From assembly GCA_040768745.1 (NCBI GenBank), contig JAXGMI010000001.1, positions 672,001 through 736,000 on the forward strand: a stretch of 64,000 bases of DNA. The letters run 5' to 3'. Shown in pieces: positions 9,416 to 32,827 of the stretch. The notes below the pieces were generated by a model, which ran no database searches, had not been told where the DNA came from, and worked only from the letters and a program-made list of their open reading frames with translations. Numbering within the stretch: the stretch's first letter is position 1; every line of letters starts with the position of its first letter. The DNA is from Desulfomicrobium sp. Lineage in GTDB: Bacteria; Desulfobacterota; Desulfovibrionia; Desulfovibrionales; Desulfomicrobiaceae. A program made the position numbers and the translations under genes.

Positions 9416-9484
9416 GTGGCCTCCTTTCCTGGGCTCTCAAGAACCTGTATCGGTCTACGGTTTTTTGGACACGTTTTTGGTTAA

Positions 9485-10759: not shown

Positions 10760-11148
10760 GAATCACCTCATGGGGAGTCTCTCTACTCCCAATTTGGTGT
10801 CCAAGAAAACCCTATCCCAGAGGAAACCCGGGGCATGCGGCAGCCGTGGGGTCTGGCATGGCTTGGCGATGAGGGTCCAGCCGTTGTTACAGATGTGTGT
10901 ATCATTTTTTGGATCACAACCTCAACAAAACACTTCACCGTCCCGGCATTTCAACAGTTCTCCCCCGTCAGGTCGTCTGGTCCACCGTCGCATTCTCACG
11001 GGATGCGCGGACGGGCATGATGGACAGGCAACCAAGGGGAGGATCATGGCCCCATGCGTTGTGGCCATTGCCAAAATCCACTATCTGCAATCGGGAATTG
11101 AAGTGCAGTTTTGTGGTGGCCCCTTGGGGAATGTCGGAGTGCAGGGTG

Positions 11149-13479: not shown

Positions 13480-13777
13480 CTAGAAGACCGCTTCTGACTA
13501 ACGGTAAGCCAGGGAACGGTTCCGTCGTCGTGCTGCCATCGAGCCAATCTTCGGCCACCTCAAGAATGATCACAGGATGCTGCGCAATTATCTCAAAGGT
13601 CACATCGGCGACTCCATGAACCTGTTCATGGCCTGGGCTGCGTTCACTTTCCGGAAGTTCATCCGGATTCTGTGTTTTTTGTGCCTCAAATTCCTTGGAC
13701 ACCCATTTCGACCCAATGTTCAGCCTGTGCAAGCATGGGCCTGACGTCGCGTATTAAGAGCTTTTCAGGATCGACTA
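13480..13777 (+). mobile_element. IS5-family remnant (transposase C-terminus and right end)
   Basis: Plus frame RFRRRAAIEPIFGHLKNDHRMLRNYLKGHIGDSMN..AAFTFRK preceded by in-frame stops; ends TTTTCAGGATCGACTA. Left boundary approximate. Confidence 0.8.
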
Positions 13778-15333: not shown

Positions 15334-15382
15334 GATACTCCCCCAAAGGCTAGATATCGGCCAAGGCCTGAAGCACCCGCAA

Positions 15383-15419
15383 TGTGCCCGGATTCGGGCA
15401 CACTGTCCATCATCGGGCA
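15383..15419. promoter_or_regulatory. Tandem upstream activator sites
   Basis: TGTGCCCG-GATT-CGGGCACA (15383-15402) and a degenerate copy TGTCCA-TCAT-CGGGCA (15404-15419), about 100 bp upstream of a -24/-12 box. Confidence 0.6.
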
Positions 15420-15501
15420 CCAGTTTTAAAAGCGCTTTCGTTGAAGCTTAAAAAATCTTGAGTTCTCAGCGTATTAAAATTTTTGCGCACGCAGCATTTT
15501 C

Positions 15502-15765: not shown

Positions 15766-16050
15766 ATGGCTATCGATTTTTTGGTTCACGAAGCTGCGGA
15801 TGGCGTTGGCGTAGTGGTCATTGAAGGCTTGAAAGCCAATCAGGAGATCACCGGATGGGTCATGAAAGAAGACCAGACCGTCAAGATCAAGATTCTCAAT
15901 GACATCCCGATTGGCCACAAGGTGGCCTTGAAGGATTTCGCGGTGGGCGACACCGTCTTCAAATACAATACCGACATCGGCAAGGTCGTGGCCCCCATCA
16001 AGAAAGGCGAACACTTGCACGTCCACAACGTCAAAACAAAGAGGTGGTAA
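15766..16050 (+). CDS. suyA: UxaA-family SAF small subunit, probable sulfolactate sulfo-lyase alpha subunit
   Basis: RBS AGGAGG; DIPIGHKVALKD..VFKYNTDIGKVV..GEHLHVHNVKTKRW; paired with a SuyB-like gene. Confidence 0.8.
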   Translation: MAIDFLVHEAADGVGVVVIEGLKANQEITGWVMKEDQTVKIKILNDIPIGHKVALKDFAVGDTVFKYNTDIGKVVAPIKKGEHLHVHNVKTKRW

Positions 16051-16053
16051 TCC

Positions 16054-17214
16054 ATGCAGACCAAATTTTTCGGATATCGTCGTGAAAATGGCCGTGTCGG
16101 CATCCGCAACCATGTCGTGATCCTGCCCCTGGACGACCTGTCCAACGCCGCCTGCGAGTCCGTGGCCAACAACGTCAAGGGCGTGCTGGCCATCCCCCAC
16201 GCCTACGGCCGCCTGCAGTTCGGCGAGGACCTGGACCTGTATTTCCGCACCCTGATCGGCGCCGGAAGCAACCCCAACGTCGCCGCCGTGGTGGTCATCG
16301 GCATCGAACCCTTGTGGACCAACAAGATCGTCGAAGGCATCGCCGCCACCGGCAAGCCTGTCACAGGCTTCGCCATCGAGAAGAACGGCGACCTGAACAC
16401 CATCTGTGCCGCGTCCCGCAAGGCCAAGGAATACCTGCAGTGGGCCACCGAGCTGCAGCGCGTCGAATGCGACGTGAAGGAACTGTGGGTCTCCTGCAAG
16501 TGCGGCGAGTCCGACACCACTTCCGGCATCGCCACCAACCCCACCGTCGGCAACGCCTACGACAAGCTGTATGAGAAGGGCTCGACTCTGCTCTTCGGTG
16601 AAACCACCGAACTGACCGGCGGCGAGCACCTCGTCAGCGAACGCTGCATCAACGAACAGGTCCGCAAGGACTTCCAGTTCTACTTCGACCGCTACGCCAA
16701 GGTCGTCGACGACCACAAGACCGACGACCTGTCCGACTCCCAGCCCACCAAGGGCAACATCGAGGGCGGCCTGACCACCATTGAGGAGAAGGCCCTGGGC
16801 AACATCCAGAAGATCGGCCGCAAGGCCCCCGTCGTCGGCTGCCTGGAAAAGGCCGTCGCACCGACCGGACCCGGCCTGTGGTTCCAGGACTCCTCCTCCG
16901 CCGCCGCGGAAATGCTCACCCTGTGCTGCGCCTCCGGCTTCGTGGTCCACTTCTTCCCCACGGGCCAGGGCAACATCATCGGCAACCCGATCCTGCCCGT
17001 CATCAAACTGTGCTCCAACCCCCGCACCCTGCGGACCATGGTAGAGCACTTCGACGTCAACGTCTCCGGCCTGCTGCGCCGCGAAATCAACATGGACCAG
17101 GCCGGCGACATGCTCCTGGACATGATGATCCGCACCTGCAACGGCCGCCTGACCTCTTCCGAAGCCCTGGGTCACCGTGAGTTTATCATAACCAGGCTGT
17201 ATGAAAGCGCGTAG
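16054..17214 (+). CDS. suyB: UxaA-family large subunit, probable sulfolactate sulfo-lyase beta subunit
   Basis: [75 protein letters not shown], as I recall for SuyB. Confidence 0.82.
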
Positions 17215-17270
17215 GGCTTTCCCCCCAGGGCGTCTCTCGCCCTGATGGGAATTTCCCTCTATTTAGCAAA

Positions 17271-17295
17271 GCTGGGGCGGCCGTTCCGCCCCAGC
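17271..17295 (+). terminator. GC-rich hairpin after suyB
   Basis: GCTGGGGCGG-CCGTT-CCGCCCCAGC, 10-bp stem, no U-tract. Confidence 0.45.
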
Positions 17296-17338
17296 CGCAC
17301 CGAAACAGACGGCATTGAGGCTCGCCGCGGAGAAACGC

Positions 17339-17599
17339 ATGCTCCACGTCCCTGACTCGCTTTACCAGCCCATAGAAGTTACCCCCGAGGGTTTCTTCAG
17401 CTCCCTTGCGAAAATTCTCCAGTCAAAAATCGGCTGCGACCGCGTCAGCCTGACCATCTACGAATCCGCAACCGACTCCCTGGCCTGGTTCGCCAAGGCC
17501 GCGGGCATCTGTGTCACATGCATGGACTCAGGCGCCGCACTCGGGCTCATCTGCGGCGAAATCGGTACTAACAATTCAGTTTTCAAGATAGCACAATAA
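17339..17599 (+). pseudogene. Truncated GAF-regulator paralog
   Basis: FFSSLAKILQSKIGCDRVSLTIYESATDSLAWFAKAAG aligns by eye with IFLQTLARLFRQQFDYDRLCINLYDSNSELLSYFTAAEG of 13765..15333; ends at a GC drop. Confidence 0.65.
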
Positions 17600-17686
17600 C
17601 TGCGTATAAATAAGGAGGAGATTCAACTCTGCAATGAAGGATAGCATCGTCATCTTTGTGAAAAAAAAAACGAAAACGGAGGCATT

Positions 17687-18664
17687 ATGCGGTTTAAAGC
17701 GATCTTTTTAAGCACCCTGGTTTTTATTTTCAGCATTGGAACAGTACATGCAGCTGGATTCCCCACTAAACCTATCAATCTTATTGTCCCGTTTGGTGCA
17801 GGAAGCACAACTGACCTCGCAGCACGATCACTAGCCAATGCCGTTAAAGATATGCTCCCTGAACCCATTGTTGTCGTCAACCGTCCTGGAGCATCCGGGA
17901 TTGTAGCGGCAGCATCTGTAGCAAACTCTCAGCCTGATGGCTATACAATGCTCATGTCCAGAGTAAGTTGCAACGGAGCCGTACCAGCACTGAACAAGAA
18001 GACTCCCTACAAGGTTGATGATTTTACATTTGTTGGTATTACTGAATTGAATCCTTTTGTGATTTGTGTACTCGCCGATTCTCCATATAAAACATTGGAC
18101 GACCTGATAAAAGCGATCAAAGAAAATCCTGGCAAGCTGTCCTTCGGCACCTCAGGCGCCCTTTCAATGCTGGACATCGTTGGAATGATGCTTCTTGATG
18201 CCGCAGGCCTTCCTCAGCAAGCCGCAGTCTCAGTACCATATAAGGGCGATGGGGATGCCAAGACCGCTCTTCTTGGGGGGCATATACAATTTATACCCAA
18301 TAACCTTTCACCCATGGCTGATGTCATGAAGGCAGGCACGGTTCGCGCTCTGGCAGTGACAACAAAAGAACGCCTTGAAAACTTTCCAGACGTTCCAACT
18401 GTTGCTGAAGCTGGATATCCCGCTTTGTCCGGTGCAGTGGGATGGTCAGGCTTCTTTGGTCCAAAGGGCATGGATGCAGAAACTGTCAAGGTGTACGCTG
18501 AAATGCTGCAAAAAATGAAAAACGACCCTGAGTGGTTGAAAGCTACCAAACTGCTTGGCGCTATTCCTAACGTATTGACACCTGAGGAGTCGAAAGCCTT
18601 CGTCATGAAACAGTATGCGGACTTTGAAGCGCTCGGCAAGAAATTGAATATTATTGTCCAATAA
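17687..18664 (+). CDS. tctC: Tripartite tricarboxylate transporter substrate-binding protein (TctC/Bug)
   Basis: Signal peptide, FPTKPINLIVPFGAGSTTDLAAR, VVNRPGASG, PDGYT, VPYKG, PDVPT..EAG. Confidence 0.93.
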   Translation: MRFKAIFLSTLVFIFSIGTVHAAGFPTKPINLIVPFGAGSTTDLAARSLANAVKDMLPEPIVVVNRPGASGIVAAASVANSQPDGYTMLMSRVSCNGAVPALNKKTPYKVDDFTFVGITELNPFVICVLADSPYKTLDDLIKAIKENPGKLSFGTSGALSMLDIVGMMLLDAAGLPQQAAVSVPYKGDGDAKTALLGGHIQFIPNNLSPMADVMKAGTVRALAVTTKERLENFPDVPTVAEAGYPALSGAVGWSGFFGPKGMDAETVKVYAEMLQKMKNDPEWLKATKLLGAIPNVLTPEESKAFVMKQYADFEALGKKLNIIVQ

Positions 18665-18673
18665 AAACATATT

Positions 18674-18703
18674 CATGGCGCACGGATTCATCCGTGCGCC
18701 ATG
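18674..18703. repeat. Perfect 13-bp hairpin between tctC and tctB
   Basis: CATGGCGCACGGA-TTCA-TCCGTGCGCCATG. Confidence 0.7.
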
Positions 18704-18752
18704 GGTGCGTTACCTTTGTTTGTGCGACTTTACAAACTAGAAGGAGCGTTTT

Positions 18753-19262
18753 GTGAATAAAACTGTTGATATAACTGTTGGGGCTGTGTTCGCCATCATA
18801 TTTCTCGCAATGCTTTTCATTGTAAACCCTTGGGCAATTGCAGTGCCAACTGCATCAGTCACAGAGGTTGGATCTGTCACGCCGCGTTTTTTTCCAAATT
18901 TAATTTGTATTTTCGCATTTATTTTTAGCATAATTACAATAGTATACAGTTATAAATTTGCTCATTACGATAGTAATGAAAAATTCGATGTTTTAGATTT
19001 TAAAAATAAGGAACATCTCCATACTTTTTTGACACGTTTAGCAGCAATGACGTTATTAGTAATTTTTCCTTTCATTGCTGGCTCCTTAGGCATAATAGTA
19101 GGAGGAGCTATTTTATATATTTTATTTGCACTATTTTGTGGAGAAAAAAATTGGTTAAAAGCTGGTCTTGGTTCTTTAATTTGCATTGCTTTGCTTTACT
19201 ATTTTTTTGTACATATTGCTGATATTCCTATGCCGTTAGGTTTTATAGAAAAGTTTTTGTAA
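18753..19262 (+). CDS. tctB: TTT small membrane subunit
   Basis: TPRFFP motif, four to five TM segments, C-terminal IPMPLG; lies between tctC and tctA. Confidence 0.85.
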   Translation: MNKTVDITVGAVFAIIFLAMLFIVNPWAIAVPTASVTEVGSVTPRFFPNLICIFAFIFSIITIVYSYKFAHYDSNEKFDVLDFKNKEHLHTFLTRLAAMTLLVIFPFIAGSLGIIVGGAILYILFALFCGEKNWLKAGLGSLICIALLYYFFVHIADIPMPLGFIEKFL

Positions 19263-19302
19263 TTTTTAATTATTTATATTGAGGTGCAAAAAGGGGTTTG
19301 AT

Positions 19303-20064
19303 ATGATTGAACAACTTTCTCAAGCTTTTTTTCTAGCATTTACATGGTATAATTTGTTTCTTATGTTTGTAGGAATGCTTGGCGGAGTAATCATAGGTGC
19401 ATTGCCTGGCTTGACTGGAACCATGGCCGTTACCCTGGTATTGCCTTTCACATTTCATATGCAACCGATTCCTGCTTTGTTGCTCCTCGTCGCTATATAC
19501 AAAGGAGCTATGTATGGCGGGTCTATTTCTGCGATTTTAATTAAAACCCCAGGGACAGGAGCCGCTGCGTGCACTGTACTGGACGGCTGGCCGATGGCAC
19601 AACAGGGCAAAGCAGGCAAGGCACTGTTCATGGCGCTTTATGCTTCATGCATCGCAGACTTTATTTCCAATCTTTCCTTAATTTTCTGTGCTGGCCTCAT
19701 CGCCAGTTTTGCATTAAGCTTTGGGCCTCCGGAATTTTTTCAACTTATCTTTTTTTCGCTGACGATTGTAGCCTCACTGTCTGGTGAAAACATGTTCAAA
19801 GGTCTGATTGGTGGTTGTATCGGTCTGCTTTTATCCACTGTTGGCTTGGATATGGTCTATGGGACAGATCGTTATACTTTTGGAAGCGTAGACCTCATGT
19901 CAGGAATCAGTTTTATACCTTTGATTATTGGCTTGTTCGCCATCCCGGAAATCATCAAGGCATGCACCGGAAGGCCACCTCAGAAAGAACACGTAATCAG
20001 TGTTGGCGGCGACAGAGTAACCATGTCCGAGTTCAAACGTTGCTTCAAGACCACCCAAGTTTGA
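19303..20064 (+). pseudogene. tctA: TTT large membrane subunit, truncated by IS1634
   Basis: IGALPGLTGTM, YGGSISAILIKTPGT, FGPPEFF, IIGLFAIPE; only about 250 aa (roughly half of TctA); stop is inside the IS1634 end. Confidence 0.9.
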
Positions 20065-21929
20065 CAGCAATATCGAGCTTATTTGTTTAAAATTAGGATA
20101 TTATCGCTTCGGCGCTAGTTGGAGTTTACACTACATTTCCTTTTTCTCCACGGGTCGGGATCGGCGGGACTCCCAGAGCACGCAGGATCTTTTTCTGCGC
20201 GTCCGTGGGGCGACTAGGAGTCATCAGCGTCTCCTCTCCGACCATGATCTCCCCCATCTTGATCTGACGCAGAAGGCGGATGGCTGTCGGCACAGACACT
20301 GCCATTCCTTTGAGCTTGTTGCGCATCCAGCGCTCTAACTGCAATGCGATCACGCAGACAAACACATGTGCCCTGATTCGCTCCTCAGTCCAGTGATACA
20401 CAGGGCGTAGTTCCAAGGTGCTTTTGAGCGCTCTCCATCCCCGTTCAATTTCAGCAAGCTCTTTGTAATGTTTGATAATGTCTGCGCATGGTGCATCCAT
20501 GTCGGTTGTTTCGAGAAGCAAGACGCCATCGATCTTTTCCTCCCAAGCCCTGCGTTTCCTGTGGGCCTTGACGATGACCTGATCCTGAGTGAGCGCAACT
20601 TGGAACAATGAGAGCAAGCCCTTGTCACGCAGGTAATCCCTGATGCGGTCGTATTGACCCTGTGGGCTTGGTTTGCGTCCCTTGCCTGACCTTGGGGCGA
20701 GTATTTCCCGGATCTTGGCATCGGCCTTGGCAAGGCGCTCCTGGCGGTTCGCCTTGGTTTCGGCTGCGATCTTCGGAGAATAGGCCATAACGAACCGGAC
20801 CCCGCTGCGAACTTCCTCGACAATCTCCTCGTCCTGCCCATTAAACGAGATCTTAAGACGCAACGCCTCGATCACGCTCCGCGCCTCCTCTCCACGACGC
20901 AATGGATGCGCCACGATGAAGCCGAATTCCTCGGCCAGCAACGTCTCGAGATTTTGGTCCGAGAGCATTCCCCTGTCCCCGACAAACACCACGCTGCGTA
21001 GCTTGAAGCGAGTCTTCAGATCCTTCACCACCTCAACCACAGTGGTCTTATCCACGGTGTTCCCCGGAAAGACATGGTGGCAAAGCGGTATGCCGTCCTT
21101 GCCCATGACCACGCCGATGGTGATTTGGCGCCGATCAAACCGGCCATCGCGACTGTATCCGAAGCGCCGAATGTCATCCTCCACCAACGATCGATCCCCG
21201 TCGAACCATGTGGAAGTGATGTCATAGAAGAGCAGGTCGCCTTCCCAATGCGCCTTGGGCATGAAGCGCTTGGCTATCAAGGGCTCCAAAGCTTCCTTCG
21301 CATCCAGCAATCTATCCATGGCGCGCAGGAGATGGTGATAGGCCGGGCGGTGTTGCTCAAATCCAGAAAGCCAGACGCCATCGAGCCAATCCAGTAGCGC
21401 CAGTTTGGAGCACGGATCGCAGAGTCGATTGACGATCAGCAACTTGATCAGTTCAGCATAATCCATCCCGGCCCCGGTCTTTACTCCTGCACGGGCCAGG
21501 GCTTTGGAGAGTCCCAGGATTTCCCAGAGATGTTTGACCGCGTGAACATGTCCGAAATCACGTGCAAACGTGAGGAGCGGCGGTCCAGTCTGAACCGGGT
21601 CTCGACCGAGAGCTTTCTGGAAGCCAGCGATGAGTCTCTCGACCTGGTCTTCGCCCAAACTCTCGATAGTGCCGAGATGAGCCAGGATGCGTGTGCGCGG
21701 AGATCCGCCTTTCTCGGGATCACGGAAAGATTCCGCGATCTGAAGATGGCGGTAGACTTTGTCGCCTCGTTTCTGCTTGGCTATTCGTACAAACATAAAC
21801 TACGAGTAGCATTATTATTCATGAATAGCAATGTTTATGTCTATTTTGTACGTACTACAAATCGGATATCAAAAATCAATATAAGTCATAACTTCGAGAT
21901 GTTAGCCTCAAGTTGTTGTCAAACTTGGG
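20054..21929 (-). mobile_element. IS1634-family element (1876 bp)
   Basis: Terminal IRs CCCAAGTTTGACAGCAA / CCCAAGTTTGACAACAA; no flanking target duplication. Confidence 0.9.
20126..21796 (-). CDS. IS1634-family DDE transposase
   Basis: FYDITSTWF, FGYSRDGR, VFPGN, FVGDRGM, YKELAEIERGWRALKS, RPVYHW..RIRAHVFVC. Confidence 0.93.
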   Translation of the reverse strand: MFVRIAKQKRGDKVYRHLQIAESFRDPEKGGSPRTRILAHLGTIESLGEDQVERLIAGFQKALGRDPVQTGPPLLTFARDFGHVHAVKHLWEILGLSKALARAGVKTGAGMDYAELIKLLIVNRLCDPCSKLALLDWLDGVWLSGFEQHRPAYHHLLRAMDRLLDAKEALEPLIAKRFMPKAHWEGDLLFYDITSTWFDGDRSLVEDDIRRFGYSRDGRFDRRQITIGVVMGKDGIPLCHHVFPGNTVDKTTVVEVVKDLKTRFKLRSVVFVGDRGMLSDQNLETLLAEEFGFIVAHPLRRGEEARSVIEALRLKISFNGQDEEIVEEVRSGVRFVMAYSPKIAAETKANRQERLAKADAKIREILAPRSGKGRKPSPQGQYDRIRDYLRDKGLLSLFQVALTQDQVIVKAHRKRRAWEEKIDGVLLLETTDMDAPCADIIKHYKELAEIERGWRALKSTLELRPVYHWTEERIRAHVFVCVIALQLERWMRNKLKGMAVSVPTAIRLLRQIKMGEIMVGEETLMTPSRPTDAQKKILRALGVPPIPTRGEKGNVV

Positions 21930-22080
21930 CGTCAACAGTCAGGCCGAGCACAGTTTTACGGCAACATGGAGTACCAGTGGAATATTCACGGATGCGAACG
22001 CTTGCGTCATCCTCATCGGAATTTTGTAGGATTTCAAGAATACGTCCTTTAGCGTTATCCGTCATGAAAACTTTAAACAT
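21930..22080 (-). pseudogene. ErpA/IscA/HesB-like Fe-S carrier gene, truncated by IS1634
   Basis: RBS AGGAG; MFKVFMTDNAKGRILEILQNSDEDDASVRIREYSTGTPCCRKTVLGLTVDA then the IS end. Not in ORF track. Confidence 0.7.
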
Positions 22081-22105: not shown

Positions 22106-22999
22106 TTAGACGATGATTGTATGCAAGTTGTGCGCATCAAAATACTTCAGAACATTCTTAAGAGCCTCTGGGGAATATCCTGGATACGTAGGCTCTGGCT
22201 TAGACAACGCGGCGTACTTGTTTTTGCCGAATGCATGACAGGGGAGCACATCGACTTCGTCCTTGCAAAACTCTTTCAGCAGAACAGCCAGTCGTTTGAT
22301 GTTTTCTTCTGTGTCATTCAGACCGGGTATCAGCGGGATGCGTATACGATATGGTACGCCGAGACGGACTATTTCTCGTAAGTTTTCAAGGATTAGGCGG
22401 TTGTCAACCCCTGTAACATCCTTGTGCATTTCCGGATCCATATGCTTGATGTCAAACAGCACAAGGTCAGATAATTTAACGAACTCCCGGAATTTTTCTG
22501 TTGGGCACTGTCCGCAGGTATCCAAGCAGACATGATACCCGTGTGAACGGCAGGCGTGCTGCAGTGCCAACAAAAAATTGCCGGCCATGGTCGGTTCGCC
22601 GCCGCAGAAAGTAACCCCACCCCCAGAGTTGAAGTAGAAGAGTTCATCCTTGCAAACGACATTCATCACCTCGTTCACAGTCATTCGTTTGCCAGAAATG
22701 ACTCGCGCCTTGCTCAAGCAAATTGCTTCGCATTGACCACAGTTAACACATTTTATCCTGTCAATCACCGCCTTCCCGTTGGCAATGGCAATAGCTTTTT
22801 CAGGACAAGTTTCGACGCAGAGACCGCACCCTGTGCAGAGATCTTGGAAGAGCATGAGTTGCGGGGACAGGCTCTGTGATTCCGGGTTGCTGCACCATCG
22901 ACATTGCAAGGGGCATCCTTTCAAAAATACCGTGGTCCGCAATCCGGGCCCATCATGCCCGGACATTCGCTGGATGTTGTACACTATTCCTGATTGCAT
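22106..22999 (-). CDS. Glycyl radical enzyme activating enzyme (radical SAM with 2x[4Fe-4S] insert)
   Basis: HDGPGLRTTVFLKGCPLQCRWCSNPES; CTGCGLCVETC and CVNCGQCEAIC; GGGVTFCGGEP; DIKHMD; RIPLIPG. Confidence 0.96.
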   Translation of the reverse strand: MQSGIVYNIQRMSGHDGPGLRTTVFLKGCPLQCRWCSNPESQSLSPQLMLFQDLCTGCGLCVETCPEKAIAIANGKAVIDRIKCVNCGQCEAICLSKARVISGKRMTVNEVMNVVCKDELFYFNSGGGVTFCGGEPTMAGNFLLALQHACRSHGYHVCLDTCGQCPTEKFREFVKLSDLVLFDIKHMDPEMHKDVTGVDNRLILENLREIVRLGVPYRIRIPLIPGLNDTEENIKRLAVLLKEFCKDEVDVLPCHAFGKNKYAALSKPEPTYPGYSPEALKNVLKYFDAHNLHTIIV

Positions 23000-24420
23000 A
23001 CAGATCACTCTACAATTTCTTCGGTTAAGCGCCGGCAAGATGGTTGGCATCCTGCCGGCTCCGAATCAATAATTTAGTTGTACTCGGTGCGTTTAATGAT
23101 TTCGTTCTGCACGCCTTTATCCAGTCGGGTAAAGTAGGCGCTGAAACCAGCTACCCGTACGACCAGATCCTTGTAGTTTTGAGGCTTCTCCTGTGCATCC
23201 TTAAGTGTATCTGAACTTACACAGTTGAACTGGATGTGGCTGCCGCCAAGGTCAAAGTAAGTTTTCAACAGACTGAGAAGGGTTCGAGCACCAGCCGGTC
23301 CTTCTAGGGCAGAGGGGAGGAACTTCACATTGAAGTGGTTTGAGGCATAATCTACGGTGTCTACTGCTTGGGCGGCGGATTTAATCAAAGCAGTACTGCC
23401 TTCCAGGTCGGTGCCAGGCATGGCAGATACACTACCGTCGGTCAGAGCCACCCCAGCTTTTCGTCCATTGGGCAGCGCACCCATCATGCCGCCAAAGTAG
23501 TTGTGAAAGGACAATGAATAGGCATCAATGAACGCAGTGTGCCCCATGTAGTCAGGACCGTAGCTGCGATAGATTTTGTGCACGTCACGGTAGAATCTGC
23601 GAACAAGGGTGTCGACTTCCGGAATGTCGTTGCCATGCTTGGGAGCTTCAATGCACATGCGATGCACATCTTCGTAGCCCTCAAAGTTGGCCGCAAGAGC
23701 TTCTTTGAGTTGAGCCATGGTCAAGGTTTTGGTGTCGTAGACCAGATGCTTAATAGCCAGTAGACAATTGGAAGCGTCAATCCCACCAGTGCCTATACAC
23801 AATGTCTGTGCATAACGAGCTCCTCCAGCTTCCTCAACCAAACCCTTTTCAAGGCATCCGTCGATGATAGCAGAGCGGAACACGCTAGGTACAACCCATT
23901 CTTTAACAGTGTTACCGATATCTGAACGCAGGCGTTGCATCTTTAGCAAATAATCAGTCTGCTTTATGAACGCAGTATAGAATTCTTCGAAGGTTTGAAA
24001 TTCTTCAGAATTGCCAGATTCAATGCTGATCTGCTTCTTGGTTGTCGGGTCCCATCCGTTGTATAGGGTAAATTCAATGGGCTTAACAAAGTTTGGAAAG
24101 TCTTCCATGATGACAAAAGATCCCTTACCAGCCACCCCGGTACCGACGCAGCCGAAGTTGGCACAGTTTCGGGCATCTTCGAGAGTGATGCCTAATTCAC
24201 CAAAGCGGTTGAAGTGACGTTGAATGACAACATTATTGTTCATGAACTGAGGTTGCCCAGTCCCGCCGCGGACTACTTCGACAGCTTTCTGCAGGTAAGA
24301 CTCCTTCATCTTAGGATGATAGAATAAGCTAATGGTGGGCTGAATATTCTTCATCTGAATTTGGGTGTCCATAATAACTTCTGCATCGGTCTACGGTTTT
24401 TTGGACACGTTTTTGGTTAA

Positions 24421-25311
24421 TCAAGCCGCAACGTTCACGGCCTCTTTCTGGATGGCCCGCACCGCTGCCGGAGTCTTGTAGCCGTGGCGTCCAATGATCC
24501 ATTCCCGGTTGTACGTCTCCTTGAACTCCAAGAGGGCAAGTCGGAGTTCCTCGACCGTATCGAACCGCCGGACCCAGAGCAGGTTTTCCTTGAGCGTGCG
24601 CACGAACCTCTCGGCGATGCCGTTGCCTTGGGGTTCTCTGACGAAAGCAGGCGAACTCCGGATGCCCAGGAAGGAAACCTCCTCTTGAAACACACTGGAA
24701 ACGTACTGGCTACCATTGTCATGTCGCAGGGTCAGGCCCTCTGCCACGGCGGGTCCAAAGGCTCCAAAGCTGTGGCGCACACCTTGGCGAATCGGCTCCA
24801 GGGCTTCAAAGCGCGTCCCGTACTTAGCGGCGTGGATGCCGACACACTCCAGAGAGCAGTGGTCCACGGCCAGGAAGATCGAAGCGTTGCCTTCCTGCAT
24901 GGTCATCGTCGTGGTCATGTCCGTGCCCCACATCTCGTCCACCCGGGCAGTCTTGATCGTCCCGTCATGCGCCTTGGGGCCATGCGGCCTGCCGGGCTTG
25001 CGCACTGCGAGCAGGTTGTTCTCTCTCATGATCCGAAGCGTTCGCAGGGGGGACGTTCTGATGCCCTCAAAACGCAACCTGGCCCACACTTTCCGATAGC
25101 CTTCACCAGTAAAAGGGGAGTTCTGGATGCATGCCACGATGTGCCCGAACAACTCCCCATCACTGTGGAAGCCAATAGGGCCTCGGCGGCTTGGTGTGCC
25201 CTCATTCGCAACCTTGCGTGCATAATGCGTGGACCTGGGGAGATTCCAGACCCGGCAAACCAGCACCAGCCCATACGTCTGACCAGTGGAGGGCGAGGTG
25301 GACCGGCTCAT
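24421..25311 (-). CDS. IS3 OrfB DDE transposase
   Basis: GYRKVW, WGTDMT, LRHDNGSQY, PQGNGIAERFVRTLKE. Confidence 0.95.
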   Translation of the reverse strand: MSRSTSPSTGQTYGLVLVCRVWNLPRSTHYARKVANEGTPSRRGPIGFHSDGELFGHIVACIQNSPFTGEGYRKVWARLRFEGIRTSPLRTLRIMRENNLLAVRKPGRPHGPKAHDGTIKTARVDEMWGTDMTTTMTMQEGNASIFLAVDHCSLECVGIHAAKYGTRFEALEPIRQGVRHSFGAFGPAVAEGLTLRHDNGSQYVSSVFQEEVSFLGIRSSPAFVREPQGNGIAERFVRTLKENLLWVRRFDTVEELRLALLEFKETYNREWIIGRHGYKTPAAVRAIQKEAVNVAA

Positions 25312-25697
25312 TTCCTCGACCTCCGCAACCCCAAAGGGTCTTTTGCCTCCATCATTCGGATCTTCTCGCGGAGCAGTTCTATCTCCATGGTCTGCTCGCC
25401 GATTTTCTCATTGAGGCGCTTGTATTCGGCCTCCTCCGCCGGAGAGCGTTTTTTGAGACTATCCGCGCCACCGGCCAGAAAGGCATCTCTCCATTGTGAG
25501 AGCGTGGCAGCCGTCACGCCGAGTTCCCGACTGAGCGTTTCGATGTCTTCACCACGCAGAAGCCGGAGGACGGCCTCGGTCTTGTGCTGTGCCCAGAATC
25601 GCTTGGGAGTTGCCTTCGTCTCCCCGGTTCCAGTCGGCCTACGGCCTCCCTCCACCGGGGAGACGGCTGAAATATCCTTGTCGCTTTGTTTGCTCAT
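25308..25697 (-). CDS. IS3 OrfA
   Basis: Identical to other copies; ATGA overlap with orfB. Confidence 0.92.
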   Translation of the reverse strand: MSKQSDKDISAVSPVEGGRRPTGTGETKATPKRFWAQHKTEAVLRLLRGEDIETLSRELGVTAATLSQWRDAFLAGGADSLKKRSPAEEAEYKRLNEKIGEQTMEIELLREKIRMMEAKDPLGLRRSRK

Positions 25698-26966
25698 GAA
25701 TCACCTCATGGGGAGTCTCTCTACTCCCAATTTGGTGTCCAAGAAAACCCTATCCCAGAGGACTTCTTCTAACTCTGTGCTTGCGTCTTCACCATTCGCA
25801 TCTAAGCCGCCTATGGTAATGGTCTGGCCAGTGTGCCCCGACAGGGCCAGGGCATAGGCATGTCCTTGATAAACAGCGACTTCGAGATGTTTGACCCACT
25901 GGAACTTAAGCAAGGTGAGCACCTGTTCGCGAGTCAGATTTCCTTCATCGATATCCTTTTTGTAGAAGGGGTACATGTACTGACCATAGCGGCCGGGTGA
26001 GGTGGCGCAACCTGTCTGCTCTATCTGAATGCCCAGATGTGTGAACCAGAAGGATTGAATTGCTTCACGAAAGTTACGAGCAGGGAATTCAGGTACTCTG
26101 CGGCAGATTTCGGCGATTTCAAGCAATTCTGCCTTGTTGGCAGGATCAGATTCCTTGGCTGCGGTCTGTTCGGCCAAGTCTGCGTAACGGTGCGCGTAGG
26201 CAATCACAGCTTTGAGGGCAATGCGCACGGCGCGGTAAAATGCGAATTTTTCCTTGTTTCCAGCTTTTTTCGGCAATGCATTGATCCGTTCATCGACTTC
26301 CCTCAAGATGCCAGAAATGCCCTCATTGAGAACGCGTGCATAGTCTGCCACGCCAGTCCCTGTGGTTATGGAGATGGCATCGTATACCATTCCAGACTTA
26401 AATAAGAAGGATGGATTTTGGCCATACAGATCCTTGAACAACGTGTTTGTTCTGTCGACGGTGGTTTTTCCCTTCCACGCCTTGTAGGTTTTTTTCAGTA
26501 GCTCCTCGGTTTCTTTCGGAATGCTGATTTCGCCCAATGAACTCATTTTGGCCAAATCCATTTCATCTTTAATCCAGTTTACATTCCATTCTGGAAAAGC
26601 ATATACGCCTGCGCGAAAACCACTAATGGTGCCGACGATGGGGTTTCCGTCCAGGAAAATATTTTTTTTGGCTAGCAACCGCTCAAGGAGTCTGGCGCGG
26701 ATTATCACAGGTTCTTCACTGGAGAGCTCGTCATAGACTTCAAGCAGGACCTCCAAGCGCAAAGGGTCCATCTTTTGCGGAGCATCCAACAAGAATCCCT
26801 TAAGGTCTTTAATTCGCTGATCCGCAGTGTTCCAGTTAAGGTAATATCCGGAACATTTTTTTGCACTGGCTTCATTTTCATCCCATAGCTTTTTCATACG
26901 ATCCTCTGGGATAGGGTTTTCTTGGACACCAAATTGGGAGTAGAGAGACTCCCCATGAGGTGATTC

Positions 26967-27356
26967 ATGAGCAAACAAAGCGACAAGGATATTTCAGCCG
27001 TCTCCCCGGTGGAGGGAGGCCGTAGGCCGACTGGAACCGGGGAGACGAAGGCAACTCCCAAGCGATTCTGGGCACAGCACAAGACCGAGGCCGTCCTCCG
27101 GCTTCTGCGTGGTGAAGACATCGAAACGCTCAGTCGGGAACTCGGCGTGACGGCTGCCACGCTCTCACAATGGAGAGATGCCTTTCTGGCCGGTGGCGCG
27201 GATAGTCTCAAAAAACGCTCTCCGGCGGAGGAGGCCGAATACAAGCGCCTCAATGAGAAAATCGGCGAGCAGACCATGGAGATAGAACTGCTCCGCGAGA
27301 AGATCCGAATGATGGAGGCAAAAGACCCTTTGGGGTTGCGGAGGTCGAGGAAATGA
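26967..27356 (+). CDS. IS3 OrfA
   Basis: Identical to other copies. Confidence 0.92.
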   Translation: MSKQSDKDISAVSPVEGGRRPTGTGETKATPKRFWAQHKTEAVLRLLRGEDIETLSRELGVTAATLSQWRDAFLAGGADSLKKRSPAEEAEYKRLNEKIGEQTMEIELLREKIRMMEAKDPLGLRRSRK

Positions 27357-28243
27357 GCCGGTCCACCTCGCCCTCCACTGGTCAGACGTATGGGCTGGTG
27401 CTGGTTTGCCGGGTCTGGAATCTCCCCAGGTCCACGCATTATGCACGCAAGGTTGCGAATGAGGGCACACCAAGCCGCCGAGGCCCTATTGGCTTCCACA
27501 GTGATGGGGAGTTGTTCGGGCACATCGTGGCATGCATCCAGAACTCCCCTTTTACTGGTGAAGGCTATCGGAAAGTGTGGGCCAGGTTGCGTTTTGAGGG
27601 CATCAGAACGTCCCCCCTGCGAACGCTTCGGATCATGAGAGAGAACAACCTGCTCGCAGTGCGCAAGCCCGGCAGGCCGCATGGCCCCAAGGCGCATGAC
27701 GGGACGATCAAGACTGCCCGGGTGGACGAGATGTGGGGCACGGACATGACCACGACGATGACCATGCAGGAAGGCAACGCTTCGATCTTCCTGGCCGTGG
27801 ACCACTGCTCTCTGGAGTGTGTCGGCATCCACGCCGCTAAGTACGGGACGCGCTTTGAAGCCCTGGAGCCGATTCGCCAAGGTGTGCGCCACAGCTTTGG
27901 AGCCTTTGGACCCGCCGTGGCAGAGGGCCTGACCCTGCGACATGACAATGGTAGCCAGTACGTTTCCAGTGTGTTTCAAGAGGAGGTTTCCTTCCTGGGC
28001 ATCCGGAGTTCGCCTGCTTTCGTCAGAGAACCCCAAGGCAACGGCATCGCCGAGAGGTTCGTGCGCACGCTCAAGGAAAACCTGCTCTGGGTCCGGCGGT
28101 TCGATACGGTCGAGGAACTCCGACTTGCCCTCTTGGAGTTCAAGGAGACGTACAACCGGGAATGGATCATTGGACGCCACGGCTACAAGACTCCGGCAGC
28201 GGTGCGGGCCATCCAGAAAGAGGCCGTGAACGTTGCGGCTTGA
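27353..28243 (+). CDS. IS3 OrfB DDE transposase
   Basis: Identical to 24421..25311 product. Confidence 0.95.
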   Translation: MSRSTSPSTGQTYGLVLVCRVWNLPRSTHYARKVANEGTPSRRGPIGFHSDGELFGHIVACIQNSPFTGEGYRKVWARLRFEGIRTSPLRTLRIMRENNLLAVRKPGRPHGPKAHDGTIKTARVDEMWGTDMTTTMTMQEGNASIFLAVDHCSLECVGIHAAKYGTRFEALEPIRQGVRHSFGAFGPAVAEGLTLRHDNGSQYVSSVFQEEVSFLGIRSSPAFVREPQGNGIAERFVRTLKENLLWVRRFDTVEELRLALLEFKETYNREWIIGRHGYKTPAAVRAIQKEAVNVAA

Positions 28244-28362
28244 TTAACCAAAAACGTGTCCAAAAAACCGTAGACCGATACAACGAGACCTCCTCTAAAA
28301 ATTTAAATTTTACAAAATTACTTCTGCGACGTGGTTGATGCGTTCAAAATTTCACTTTCTGT

Positions 28363-28378
28363 AGCAACTCGTGTGCCT
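28363..28378 (-). promoter_or_regulatory. Sigma54 -24/-12 promoter of the GRE operon
   Basis: Minus strand AGGCACACGAGTTGCT (GG-N10-GC), about 70 bp upstream of the displaced GRE RBS AGGAGG. Confidence 0.75.
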
Positions 28379-28569
28379 AATTATTTTCTCATTTAAATAC
28401 AAACCGTTATTCATTTTTTGACTTTCCTCATTTTATCTGAATAGAAAACTGTTCTCGAAGCGTTACATCCTTAGCGAACACAAAAATTTAACTATTTGAA
28501 ATACATCGTTTTTATAAAGAAGGTTTATTTGGACACTTGTCGCGAAATCAATACAGTGGTAATTTTTTA

Positions 28570-29583
28570 CATCTGCTCGGCACTTTTCAGACCATTCGAA
28601 ACTTGAGATAGGTTTCCCCCTCAACCACGATGAGCTGATGAAAAAGGGACCATTTTCCGAAGAGCAGATGGTGGGCATCCTGCGAGAAGCTGACCGCAGC
28701 CCGGTGGCCCAGGTGGCCAAGAAGCATGGAATCAGCGAGCAGACGATCTATAATGGCGGCAGCGGTTTGCAGGCATGTCCGCCGATGACGTGAAGCGGCT
28801 GCGCCTGCTGGAACAAGAGAACACGCGGCTGAAGAAGATTCTTGCGGAACGGGACCTTGAAATCGAGGTCATGAAGGAGATCGCCGCAAAAAATGGTAGG
28901 CGCACCCGTCCGACGCCTCCAGGTGGCATACGCCAGGAGTCGCGGACTTTCACAACGCAGGGCGTGTGCGCTGTTATCCACTTCCCGGTCGTCGCTTCAC
29001 TACGAGTCACGGCTGGAGGCCCGGGACATGCCGCTGCTGGCGGCTCTGGCAGGTCTGGCTGCGACGTATCCGCGCTTTGGATACCGCCCGGATCAACGTG
29101 TTCATGGAACGTCTGGGTCATGTCATGGGTGCCGACAAGGCGTTCCGTCTGTGGTCCAAGGCCGGGTTGGAAGTGCCCAGGAAGCGGCCTCGGAAACGAG
29201 TGGCGACGTCCAGTCCGAGACCGCAACTGCCGATGGGAGCAAACGAACGGTGGGCGTACGACTATGTCTACGACGCCTGCGCAAACGGTCAACAGATCAA
29301 ATGCCTGACCGTGGTGGACGAATACACGCGTGAATGCCTGGCAATAGACGTTGCCGGGAGCATCAGGTCGAGACGGGTTATCGAGGTGCTGTCCCGCCTG
29401 ATCAGCGAACGAGGAGCCCCTCTCAGCCTGCGTTCTGACAACGGACCGGAGTTCGTGTCGAAGGCGCTGCTCAAATGGGCGGCTCAGGAGTCTCTGGACC
29501 TGGCGCTGATTGGGCCTGGGAAGCCATGGCAAAACGGTTTGAACGAGAGTTTTAACGGCAAATTTCGCGACGAGTGCCTGTCG
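28570..29583 (+). mobile_element. Degenerate IS3-family (IS407-group-like) fragment
   Basis: OrfA MKKGPFSEEQMVGILREAD..(frameshift)..LEQENTRLKKILAE; OrfB WAYDYV, LTVVDEYTRE, RSDNGPEF, PGKPWQNG..ESFNGKFRDECL, then truncated. Boundaries approximate. Confidence 0.88.
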
Positions 29584-30640
29584 AAAATTTTTTGAAAATT
29601 ATGGTGATTAAAATGCTTGTTGAAAATTATCATGACAATGATTTGCAATCACTAATACGTAACGAGCTTTTTCAAATAATTATTGACGAATTGCAAATTG
29701 GATTCGCAATCATCGATACAAACGGAATTTATAAATACATAAATAAATCATATGCTAGTATTCATGGATTAGAAAACAAAGAAAAATATATCGGTAAAAA
29801 AGTAGATGATTTTTTTACATCAGCTAAAAATGGAACACTGAAGGCAATTAAAACACAAAAGAAGGTAATCACCAAAAGTAAATCTATAAATGGAGTTGAA
29901 GGATTAAGCTTTAGATACCCAATTGTTAGTAAAGACAATCGATTTATTTGCTGTATCACAGAGACATTGGCAACAAATTTAAGCAGTAAAAAATTAATTG
30001 AATTTATTGACACAATTAAGTCTCTTCAAAAAAAAGTAAATTATTACCAGTATAAATCTAATAATAGCATAGGAGTTCTTCATACATTCGAAGATATTGT
30101 CACTATAAGTTCTTCTATGGAAGAAATGAAACAACAAGGGCATCGTTTTGCAAGGAGTGCTGAGCCGATCCTTATCTTGGGTGAAAGCGGCACAGGCAAG
30201 GAGCTTGTAGCTCAAGCTTTGCACATGGCCAGCTCGAGGGCAAAGAGAGACTTTGTTGTTGTTAACTGCGCGGCCCTTCCTCGTGATCTCATGGAATCTG
30301 AATTGTTCGGTTATTCAGAAGGTGCTTTTACCGGCTCCCGGACAGGTGGGGTCAGAGGCAAATTTGAGTTGGCCCATCAAGGAACAATCTTCTTAGACGA
30401 AATAGGGGAACTTCCGCTGAACATGCAGTCAAAGTTGCTGCGCGTGTTGGAAAGCGGCGAGATTCAAAAAATCGCCCATTCAAGCCCGGTGTTTTCAGAT
30501 TTTCGCATGATCGCTGCGACCAACAAAAATCTGCAACAGATGGTGCGGGACGGAGCTTTCCGAGAAGATCTTTACCACCGCTTAAGTATTCTTGAGTTAC
30601 GTGTCCCTCCCCTGCGTGAAAGAAAGGAGGATATCCTCCC

Positions 30641-32256
30641 CAGACTGCTGACAAAGTCACCTCAAAACCCTCGTCAAATGACGGGGGTTTTGTTATGAAA
30701 GCTTACATGTTACGCAGCACAGGACCCAAACAACTGAAGTACGAATTCGTCTGCATCGAGCGCTTGGTTCCCAAAGATCATCTTCTTCGTAAGATCACCA
30801 AGTTCATCGATTTCCGTTTCATCCACGACAAGGTCAAAGACCTGTACTGTCCGGACAACGGCCGGCCGGCTCTTGATCCGACAGTGCTCTTCAAGATGCT
30901 CTTTCTGGGGTATCTGTTCGGCATCCGCAGTGAGCGGCGGCTGATTGAGGAGATCAAGGTCAATGTCGCCTACCGCTGGTTTTTGGGCTTCAGCCTGGAA
31001 GACAAGATTCCCGACGCCTCGACCATCAGCCAGAACCGCCGCCGTCGCTTCAACCAGAGCACGGTCTACCAGGAGATTTTCGACGAGATCGTGGTTCAGG
31101 CCATCCGCCGCAAGATGATCGACGGTCGTACCCTGTACACGGATTCGACCCACCTCAAGGCCAACGCCAACAAGAACAAGTTTGTCGAAGCCGAGGTTGC
31201 CAAGAGCACGCGGGATTACATCGATGATCTGGAGCGGGACGTTGCCCAGGACCGGGCCGACCACGGCAAGAAGGCGTTGAAAGAGAACGATCCGGAACCC
31301 GAAACCAAGACGGTCAAGCAGAGCACGACGGACCCGGAGTCTGGCTACATGCACCGGGACGGCAAGCCCAAGGGGTTCTTCTTTCTGGATCACCGCTCGG
31401 TGGACGGTCTTCATGGCCTGATCACGGATACGTACGTGACGCCAGGCAATGTGCATGACTCGATACCGTATCTTGATCGTCTTGATCGACAGCGCGAACG
31501 ATTTGGTTTTGAAGTGGAGGCGGTTGGACTGGATGCTGGCTACGCGACGACAGGAATCTGCAAAGGGCTTGAGGAGAGAGGGATTTTTGGAGTGGTTGGC
31601 TACCGTCGTTTTGGAAAAAACACGGGCCGCTTCAGACGCAAGGATTTTTTCTACGACGACTCAGTGGATTGCTACGTCTGCCCTGCAAACTGCCTTTTGA
31701 GTTACCGAACCACCAACCGGGCGGGTTACCGGGAATACGCCTCGGATCCCAAGATTTGCAAAGCATGTCAGCTTCTTGAGAGATGCACGACCAGCAAGAT
31801 ATGCCGACGGGTCATAGCGCGCCACGTATGGGAAGATAGTCGGGAACGCATCGACTCCAACCGGCTGACGGAGCGTGGCAAGGCCATCTATGCCCGACGC
31901 AAGGAAACGGTTGAACGCAGCTTTGCCGACTGCAAGGAACTGCATGGGCATCGTTACGCCCGGATGCGTGGTCTCTCGAAGGTCTTGGAGCAGTGCCTGC
32001 TGTGTGCGGCCGCGTTCAACATGAAGAAAATCGCGCTGCACTTGTCCAGGTTGGGACTCCGCAGGCCAGCAAGCCCGGCGGGCGCCATGGCCGGGATGAT
32101 TCTGTCCTTTATTTACGGGATATTCCAACAACAGAAGCGCCAATACGCCCCAATTTGATCCCAGAAGGGCCTCCTGAACGATTTCAGGAAAAATACACAT
32201 CGTCAGAAAAAACAAACCCTCGCCGGACAGTGTGACGAGGGTTTGTCAGTGGTCTG
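30641..32256 (+). mobile_element. IS1182-family element, copy 1 (1616 bp)
   Basis: IRs CAGACTGCTGACAAA / TTTGTCAGTGGTCTG; 16-bp DR AGGAGGATATCCTCCC (30625-30640 / 32257-32272). Confidence 0.95.
30695..32158 (+). CDS. IS1182-family transposase
   Basis: LVPKDHLLRKI, GRPALDP, GIRSERRL, YTDSTHLKANA, STTDPESG, LDAGY, RKETVERSFAD.KE.HG. Confidence 0.94.
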   Translation: MKAYMLRSTGPKQLKYEFVCIERLVPKDHLLRKITKFIDFRFIHDKVKDLYCPDNGRPALDPTVLFKMLFLGYLFGIRSERRLIEEIKVNVAYRWFLGFSLEDKIPDASTISQNRRRRFNQSTVYQEIFDEIVVQAIRRKMIDGRTLYTDSTHLKANANKNKFVEAEVAKSTRDYIDDLERDVAQDRADHGKKALKENDPEPETKTVKQSTTDPESGYMHRDGKPKGFFFLDHRSVDGLHGLITDTYVTPGNVHDSIPYLDRLDRQRERFGFEVEAVGLDAGYATTGICKGLEERGIFGVVGYRRFGKNTGRFRRKDFFYDDSVDCYVCPANCLLSYRTTNRAGYREYASDPKICKACQLLERCTTSKICRRVIARHVWEDSRERIDSNRLTERGKAIYARRKETVERSFADCKELHGHRYARMRGLSKVLEQCLLCAAAFNMKKIALHLSRLGLRRPASPAGAMAGMILSFIYGIFQQQKRQYAPI

Positions 32257-32827
32257 AGGAGGATATCCTCCCTTTAGTAAAAAACCTTCTTGGTAAAATC
32301 GCCGGTTGTGATAGAGCCCGATCCATGCGGATCAATCAGCATGTGATCGAACTATTTCACAAGTATTCTTGGCCCGGTAATGTGCGAGAGCTTAAAAACG
32401 TACTTACCTCTGCCATCTGCTCCCTCGAAGAAAACGAAAGCGAACTGGATATTTCCCATTTGCCTGTGCGAATAATGGAAAATATGAGTACAGTTGAAAC
32501 GGCTCCGAAACGAAACGCATCTAAAGCCACTTTGGTGGAAGCCAGCAACAGCGCTGAGCGAGAAGCCATTCTTGTGGCTCTTAAACGCACAGGATTCAAT
32601 AAAAGCTTGACTGCGCGGGAACTGGGGATTTCCCGAACCAAGCTATATAAAAAGATGCAGCAACTTGGCATAAGCTAATATCAGCATGAAATATCGAGCT
32701 ATGTGGGAATCGTTCCATCCAGACGCCCGTAAGCGGGTGATAGTGGTGATGAGCTGGACTTGGTAGTCCGACAGAGAACGGACAGAAAGACGCTGCGGAT
32801 TACTGCGAACTGTGAGGGGGTGTGGGA

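Follow-up and report, generated by a model that had tools for sequence, protein, structure and literature searches.

Glycyl radical enzymes (GREs) are switched on by an activase, which installs a glycyl radical that in turn generates a thiyl radical on a Cys residue. All characterized eliminases and isomerases among them keep a Cys-x-Glu motif, and the decarboxylases IAD and HPAD rely on it, as set out in parts of a 2026 review (PMC13450708). The oxyanion hole of the Cys loop binds the fumarate carboxylate in the X-succinate synthases BSS and MASS (parts of PMC12358834) and holds water or the Glu carboxylate in IAD and others (parts of PMC13232127). For DVU2272 of D. vulgaris, the portions of two papers that name it list a putative pyruvate formate-lyase (PFL; PMC4641369, PMC10920352), and the second reports its protein in proteomes. 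We analyzed a 64,000-nucleotide stretch of Desulfomicrobium sp. (assembly GCA_040768745.1, contig JAXGMI010000001.1, positions 672,001 to 736,000; hereafter the window) in which a GRE gene on the minus strand is interrupted by an insertion sequence (IS). This gene is, almost certainly, a broken member of an uncharacterized GRE clade. Each GRE clade characterized so far gave a new anaerobic reaction, and this one is without the acid and base residues of the known classes.

The rebuilt gene, its clade and its pocket

The GRE gene, the IS within it and the adjoining activase gene are located as follows.

23074..24377, minus strand: 3' half of the GRE gene (Cys loop GCVG with Cys455 and Gly457; Glu470, Asp663, His670; Gly loop RVAGF with Gly789)
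24382..25762, minus strand: IS of 1381 bp inside the GRE gene, with Pfam domains rve, HTH_21 and HTH_Tnp_1 and a GAAG duplication
25763..26897, minus strand: 5' half of the GRE gene, codons 1-378 (invariant Cys297; Thr181 occupying the His/Arg position on strand 1; Glu339, His355, Gly357)
22106..22999, minus strand: intact GRE activating enzyme, 297 aa, with a radical-SAM motif and two ferredoxin-type cluster motifs

The first-pass annotation of the window had proposed that removing the IS and one target duplication restores an 812-aa GRE, and scripted joining of 26897-25763 to 24377-23074 on the minus strand gave exactly this: 812 codons with a single terminal stop, Cys455 in the GCVG Cys loop and Gly789 in the RVAGF Gly loop. 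The junction reads as in intact homologues. The hallmarks of the PFL-like GRE superfamily, a Gly loop and a Cys loop in a 10-stranded barrel, are present, and the cognate radical-SAM activase adjoins. The activase starts at 22999, 74 nt past the GRE stop, and its motifs (CxxxCxxC and two CxxCxxCxxxC) and its TIGR02494 score (343 bits against a cut-off of 174) bear out the annotation of an intact activase with two extra ferredoxin-type clusters. The structural model of homologue P0001 (pLDDT 93.6) superimposed on all solved PFL-like GREs with TM-scores of 0.87-0.93 at 24-33% identity, none standing out.

A homologue search returned 1269 proteins at E<=1e-50, and the best 120, which are 56-73% identical over the full length, were examined. 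The residue two positions after the Cys was Gly in 55, Ser in 43, Ala in 12, Thr in 10 and Glu in none, which rules out the reading of Gly457 as decay after inactivation. High identity to a characterized GRE and GCVE in orthologues, both named beforehand as observations that would tell against a new enzyme, were looked for and neither was found; with the nearest solved GREs just 24-33% identical, the claim that the GRE is uncharacterized holds up. The gene is also not confined to this host. A search of 400 genomes from the order gave members (E<=1e-120) in 52, all in one other family (52/294), and in a 400-genome sample of the phylum a match at E<=1e-150 was present in 10, four of these at 56-64%. 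Cluster names in the clade come from D. piger, B. wadsworthia and N. vulgaris. One homologue, P0121 (AAS96745.1, 817 aa, 91.25 kDa), shares 67-68% identity with the window protein. By name and mass, not by a displayed locus tag, it is probably DVU2272 (listed at 91.2 kDa). Genome-wide fitness tables for D. vulgaris may have a bearing on the substrate. No functional study of the clade was found in the literature searched, which left most subscription papers and all supplements outside its scope.

Four members tested fell far below all NCBIfam GRE cut-offs. The best model was TIGR01774 (491-512 against 678 bits); those for IAD (NF033718, 472-499 against 1100), HypD (459-503 against 1100), HpsG (437-464 against 1000), CutC (400-446 against 1050), HPAD (NF033715, 400-411 against 1150) and PFL (TIGR01255, 66-88 against 994) were likewise missed, so that the protein, as judged by its sequence, is a GRE but a member of no named GRE family tested. 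A tree of 55 rows chosen by likeness to the query was then calculated with IQ-TREE (LG+G4, unrooted), with the long-branched PFL row left out and phenylacetate decarboxylase (PhdB, with essential residues Tyr691, Gln484 and Trp495) not included. Anchors were verified by cut-off or PDB match and comprised IAD (P0276), HPAD (L101), HypD (P0290), CutC (P0245), HpsG (L043), E. coli YbiW and PflD, and C. butyricum GD; the AAD-like anchor (P0307) scored 677 bits to 7E7L, and the X-succinate-synthase-like row lies below any curated test. The family (100/100) nested in a 19-row uncharacterized, mostly Glu-less clade (100/100), and a 99/97 split placed it with the IAD- and HPAD-scoring rows and two further unknown groups, the fork between these being unresolved, and with the AAD-like row, the X-succinate-synthase-like row and the eliminase/isomerase clade (99/99) on the opposite side. 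A quick tree that included PFL agreed with this placement. The first-pass annotation had put the protein closer to the arylacetate-decarboxylase branch than to PFL. The decarboxylase side of that claim stands, given 22% identity to PFL and the split shared with IAD and HPAD, but AAD itself lies across the split and ranks seventh by sequence. The clade thus probably belongs, with modest certainty, on the decarboxylase side, with IAD and HPAD rather than AAD.

Pocket residues were placed by sequence alignment to the anchor enzymes, not by model coordinates or distances. Ser or Thr occurs in 113 of the 120 homologues where PFL has Arg176, IAD has Arg226 and GD has His164, and Cys297 is invariant (120/120) at the pocket position of GD His281 and HypD Asp278. 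Gly357 replaces GD Tyr339 and IAD Phe401, and Ile573 replaces IAD Leu616 and HPAD Glu637. Position 663, where HpsG and IslA have a sulfonate-binding Arg, is Asp or Glu in 119/120 (Asp663 in the window), and position 466, equivalent to BSS Arg508, is Tyr or Phe in 115/120 (Phe466 in the window). Acids and a His are conserved as well (Glu339 in 120/120, His355 in 119/120, Glu/Asp470 in 117/120), as are Gln294 and Gln358, and in the alignment to the anchors no Arg was found at any known anion-binding position. Glu470 was considered as a stand-in for BSS Arg508, since both lie at Cys+15, and was rejected: because the X-succinate-synthase-like row has a longer loop, its Arg aligns with Phe466. The side chain of Glu470 may face away from the pocket.

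The first-pass annotation had treated the Glu-less Cys loop as unusual in itself, which does not hold. The loop is CVL in AAD and CMS in a fumarate-adding-type enzyme, and of 139 neighboring representatives of 50%-identity clusters, 72 have the Glu and 67 do not (these being the full-length sequences among the 150 best, after removal of one family member and ten sequences of unusual length). By alignment, it is the whole pocket, and not the Glu-less loop alone, that sets the clade apart.

Other GREs were encountered alongside this family. A well-supported, mostly Glu-less superclade (P0205-P0216, P0223) holds at least 12 further GRE clusters at 50% identity, none past a curated cut-off. A sister clade of about 50% identity has an SCVG loop with Arg/His-Glu at Cys+13/14 (L046:2349-4829, L052:7163-9664, L058, L062, L111) and importers of anion type (DASS, Arg-type TRAP or SsuA/NMT1 ABC), and is a second uncharacterized activity. 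At one locus (L053, G347:C7), two near-identical GRE copies are divergently oriented around a shared interval. The sole other PFL-like GRE of the window genome (G000:C3:52650-55007, L098) is intact and, at 1195 bits, exceeds the HypD cut-off of 1100.

Partner protein, importers and the scattered module

The remaining features of the module in the window are listed below.

20053..21929, minus strand: multicopy DDE IS, present in 7 full copies and forming one end of an inversion of ~850 kb
21930..22080, minus strand: first 50 codons (5' half) of a gene for a small ErpA-related protein, NF033940 type, Cys-Cys form, cut by the IS
26902..28282, plus strand: another copy of the 1381-bp IS, placed 4 bp before the start codon of the GRE gene
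28289..28294, minus strand: AGGAGG ribosome-binding site of the GRE (by sequence), displaced by the IS
28363..28379, minus strand: predicted sigma-54-type promoter (by sequence), TAGGCAC-N5-TTGCT with GG-N10-GC spacing
29574..32678, plus strand: divergent PAS-type sigma-54 activator gene, interrupted by a multicopy IS (30695-32158, 8 copies)

The first-pass annotation saw no room for a small subunit gene between the GRE and the activase, overlooking a small ErpA-like gene that comes after the activase here and directly after the GRE in other loci, including several whose activase lies elsewhere. The 3' half of the IS-cut gene was not found in the genome; an intact copy scored 137 bits with NF033940 (cut-off 65). 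Of 46 loci, 45 carry an ErpA-related gene; in 38 the gene has a TGA in frame that aligns to a Cys of paralogues and is followed by a conserved hairpin. Over all copies, the codon was TGA in 42 and Cys in 32. The protein is therefore not always a predicted selenocysteine (Sec) protein, as the copy beside the window activase, a Cys-Cys form, illustrates; a tRNA-Sec gene is present in the window genome. There is one conserved Cys/Sec and no CxxC. Of the 400 genomes of the order, NF033940 matched in 53 and the GRE in 52, with both in 51, and since genome G096 carries a GRE split across contig ends, both occur in 52 of the 54 genomes holding either. The exceptions are G321, with the partner only, and G323, with a sister-type GRE only and no ErpA-related match. 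In these counts, for which the same 400-genome draw is assumed from identical tallies, related genomes are not independent and the pairing partly reflects shared inheritance. No paper joining the terms glycyl radical, HesB-like and selenoprotein, or GRE, selenocysteine, Desulfovibrio and unknown function, was found in the literature searched, and the examined sections of the 2026 review (PMC13450708) do not mention a pairing with a small Cys/Sec protein.

Neighbors were counted in 40 loci and the window by greedy ORF calls, which makes the counts lower bounds. These 41 loci contained a sigma-54 activator in 38, an activase in 34, an APC amino-acid permease in 25, TauE in 25, DUF4125 in 20, C_GCAxxG in 7, EamA in 5 and BCCT in 1, and no recurring downstream enzyme (dehydrogenase, kinase or aminotransferase) was found in them. 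A scan for sigma-54 patterns gave hits at 28 of 73 loci and was too strict or too noisy to use. Subclades differ in pocket signature and importer. The main GCVS type is accompanied by an APC permease, which among solved proteins best matches, if weakly, cationic amino-acid transporters; one GCVT locus has a BCCT transporter; and the window subtype combines GCVG and a more hydrophobic pocket with a TRAP importer. For the TRAP and APC proteins no close solved relative was found (best E values 2.5e-24 and 2e-18), so a ligand is not transferable. The acidic pocket, read together with transporters of the amino-acid, BCCT and Arg-less TRAP kinds, suggests that the core family acts on amine-bearing substrates, of which there is probably more than one. 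DUF4037 and DUF4125 genes, often with a TPR protein (L107:356-1324; L055, L057, L078, L108), lie beside the clade and also beside a fumarate-adding-type GRE, and possibly encode general accessory proteins of a subset of GREs.

The window copy of the gene is an IS-inactivated, decaying pseudogene with five IS hits. The element inside it, which we take to be IS3-like, is flanked by GAAG at 25766-25763 and 24381-24378, and occurs in 10 full copies in the 3.09-Mb genome with a 4-bp duplication readable at most of them. The insertion itself is real: contigs of the public runs X1, X4, X6, X10 and X11 extend into the ends of the IS. In one of eight runs, X12, a contig from a manure metagenome not flagged as a source lacks exactly 1385 bases between 24376 and 25762 and would represent an IS-free allele, with just 30 letters on the short side. 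The second copy (26902-28282), before the start codon, separates the GRE from both the AGGAGG site and the predicted sigma-54 promoter. Four copies of this IS fall within 47 kb (9445-10824, 24382-25762, 26902-28282 and 55182-56563), a heavy load around a low-GC island. The interrupted activator is itself preceded by an IS fragment, and its N-terminus best resembles the activator (39%) of the closest intact locus, L074, where the gene order is activator, GRE, activase, ErpA-related gene and dctP.

The other half of the module has been moved ~850 kb away by an IS-mediated inversion. One end is the DDE IS at 20053-21929, presumably IS1634-like, and the other is its second copy at G000:C1:1543844-1545720, with tctA split between the two. 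Beyond the latter follow a dctP remnant (its final 25 codons, which match L074), dctQ, dctM, an ErpA-related gene with a TGA, and genes for C_GCAxxG, USP, DUF4037 and DUF4125. The displaced DctM is 55% identical to that of GRE locus L079 and at most 35% to the other DctMs of the genome. At one inversion breakpoint, a deletion removed most of dctP together with the small gene's 3' half. Two observations would fit a horizontally acquired island that is now decaying: the GC content of the module is 39-49%, against 60% for the genome, and a search of 34 further genomes from this family did not turn the module up.

Next to the inversion end, 15766-20064 encodes an SAF and UxaA/GarD-type two-gene dehydratase, presumably SuyAB-like, with tctCBA, and 13765-15420 encodes a GAF-type sigma-54 activator; the 3' half of tctA and an Ldh_2-family dehydrogenase gene lie at C1:1540287-1543775. 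This set is possibly what remains of a module for sulfolactate or a sugar acid. A link between it and the GRE was rejected, as the inversion juxtaposed the two, splitting tctA, and suyAB and tct were not seen at the other loci. Further along, an ORF of 489 aa (11515-12984) appears to join two domains, one tyrosine-phosphatase-like (HCWGGVGRT) and one ADP-ribosylglycohydrolase-like.

Candidate reactions

With less than even confidence, we propose that the intact copies act as decarboxylases on an imported, amine-bearing acid and dispense with the usual Cys-x-Glu base. The activase would place the radical on Gly789, giving a thiyl radical at Cys455. Having Gly, Ser, Ala or Thr in place of Glu would free the backbone-amide oxyanion hole of the Cys loop, which could then hold the substrate carboxylate beside the thiyl, while the invariant acids (Glu339, Glu/Asp470 and Asp663) would bind the amine end. 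CO2 would leave after one-electron oxidation or H abstraction, and the product radical would regain H from Cys455, with the invariant His355 or Cys297 replacing Glu as proton donor. Since no downstream enzyme is conserved, the product would be released without further processing. The small ErpA-like protein likely serves the GRE or its activase specifically, to judge from co-occurrence. Besides the placement in the tree, decarboxylation is favored by AAD, a characterized decarboxylase that also lacks the Glu.

Several points weigh against decarboxylation. IAD and HPAD both need the Cys-x-Glu that the clade lacks (parts of PMC13450708 and PMC13232127), and decarboxylation leaves the keeping of a selenoprotein partner unexplained. 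The tree is unrooted with rows picked by likeness to the query, FastTree (147 rows) supported the IAD link with only 0.62, and raw scores to eliminases are as high or higher (GD 413, CutC 408, HypD 405, AAD 386 and HPAD 282 bits). The different pocket signatures of the subclades make several substrates likely. At the close loci L074 and L079, TRAP binding proteins carry Tyr and Met at the position of the carboxylate-selecting Arg, a residue that is kept by sister-group L058 and by 6/6 readable unrelated DctPs of the window genome. Only 3% of DctPs lack that Arg and one such protein binds ethanolamine (parts of PMC4646407), which argues against a plain carboxylate for the window subtype.

The alternative that survives best, though we consider it somewhat unlikely, is a reductive radical cleavage of a C-N (or C-S+) bond in an amine, amino acid or onium compound, in which Cys455 and Cys297 would act as a thiol pair as in ribonucleotide reductases and the Sec/Cys protein would re-reduce the enzyme. 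The net redox outcome would be akin to that of Stickland selenoprotein reductases. The invariance of Cys297 at a pocket position (120/120), the Arg-less TRAP proteins and the amine-type transporters fit this reaction, but Cys297 lies on strand 2, which is not where ribonucleotide reductases have their second Cys, and no conserved reductase gene is nearby. The partner likewise counts on both sides. Its presence in 45/46 loci (38 with TGA and hairpin), the tRNA-Sec gene, its position directly after the GRE in several loci with the activase elsewhere, and its co-occurrence with the GRE in 52/54 genomes, even though many sampled genomes carry other GRE candidates, would suit an electron donor. ErpA-type proteins are, however, Fe-S insertion factors by family annotation, for which a three-cluster activase gives a simpler role; the partner has one conserved Cys/Sec and no CxxC; and the co-occurrence is partly shared inheritance, with the sister-type member in G323 lacking a match. 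The bolder form of this proposal, which we regard as rather unlikely, is that the clade would be the first PFL-like GRE to carry out a net reduction, a C-N cleavage using Cys297 and a dedicated selenoprotein electron relay, and would define an unrecognized amine or amino-acid pathway in sulfate reducers, D. piger, B. wadsworthia and D. vulgaris among them, that is at present mislabeled as PFL.

A redox-neutral elimination or isomerization of an amine-bearing substrate, of the ammonia- or amine-lyase type and with His355, Glu339 or Glu470 as the base, appears improbable. Candidate residues are conserved (Glu339, His355, Glu/Asp470, Gln294 and Gln358), sequence and fold scores are highest to eliminases and the transporters are of amine type, but the characterized eliminases and isomerases all keep Cys-x-Glu (parts of PMC13450708), their 99/99 clade excludes the family, and no aldehyde- or ketone-processing enzyme is conserved nearby. 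We consider radical addition, either hydroalkylation as in X-succinate synthases or another C-C forming step, highly improbable. The small Cys+2 residue as in the fumarate-adding type (CMS), a pocket enlarged by the changes from His to Ser/Thr and from Phe/Tyr to Gly357, DUF4037/DUF4125 genes beside fumarate-adding enzymes as well (L107; parts of PMC12583861) and a small acidic partner that could be a subunit are set against Tyr/Phe in 115/120 where BSS has Arg508, 28% identity, a separate position of the X-succinate-synthase-like row and a lack of conserved beta-oxidation genes.

The first-pass annotation had also suggested C-S cleavage, and a sulfonate lyase, tied to the suyAB-like and tctABC genes or to TauE, has a very slim chance. 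TauE/SafE occurs in 25/41 loci, SsuA/NMT1-type ABC proteins occur at two sister-group loci and the host group is sulfidogenic; however, the two Arg and one Gln that anchor the sulfonate in HpsG, IseG and IslA are Ile177, Thr181 and Asp663 here, which disfavors this chemistry, Cys-x-Glu is missing, and the juxtaposition of suyAB and tct by the IS inversion removes the local hint. PFL itself, despite the annotation of DVU2272 and its detection in proteomes (parts of PMC4641369 and PMC10920352), can practically be dismissed given the single Cys in place of Cys-Cys, Thr181 and Phe472/Pro473 at the positions of Arg176 and Arg435, 22% identity to E. coli PflB and TIGR01255 scores of 66-88 against 994 bits.

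Comparison with known systems

The clade is a real, widespread and uncharacterized GRE variant, common in sulfate-reducing bacteria, and the window pseudogene serves mainly as a pointer to intact orthologues (P0004/L074 and P0121). It resembles IAD and HPAD in falling on the same side of the 99/97 split, in a short strand-3 loop, in having Ile573 at IAD Leu616 (parts of PMC6181972), in the absence of downstream enzymes, in a transporter within the cluster and in the three-cluster activase. It differs from them in identity (30-32%), length (about 810 aa against 878-904) and scores under half of the cut-offs, has no counterparts of Cys-x-Glu, Arg226, His514, Phe401 or HPAD Glu637, and has a second Cys (Cys297) and an ErpA-like partner. 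With AAD (PDB 7E7L) it shares a single-subunit GRE without Glu at Cys+2 (CVL) and a strand-8 stretch ending in Phe-His; however, identity is about 30%, AAD lies on the other side of the split, and the strand-3 loop and strand-1 residues differ.

The X-succinate synthases (BSS, MASS) are similar in their small Cys+2 residue, open oxyanion hole in the Cys loop and DUF4037/DUF4125 neighbors, and differ in identity (24-28%), in Arg508, which has no counterpart here, in their separate branch and in their beta and gamma Fe-S subunits, for which no genes lie between the clade enzyme and its activase. The eliminases and isomerases (GD, PD, HypD, CutC, IslA/IseG, HpsG, YbiW, PflD) share the fold (TM 0.88-0.93) and give the highest raw scores, yet they keep Cys-x-Glu, their His, Asp and Arg anchors are Ser/Thr, Cys, Gly and Asp in the clade, and they form a separate 99/99 clade.

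A similar described locus is the DVU2272-DVU2269/DVU2275 regulon of D. vulgaris Hildenborough (Kazakov 2015, parts of PMC4641369), which has a divergent sigma-54 activator, a GRE, an activase and two further genes. DVU2272 is annotated there as PFL without a biochemical test. Its probable sequence, P0121, is of the GCVS subtype with an APC permease, where the window has GCVG and a TRAP importer. The clade probably includes this gene, treated as PFL in D. vulgaris papers, and metabolic models of this model sulfate reducer may accordingly carry a wrong reaction.

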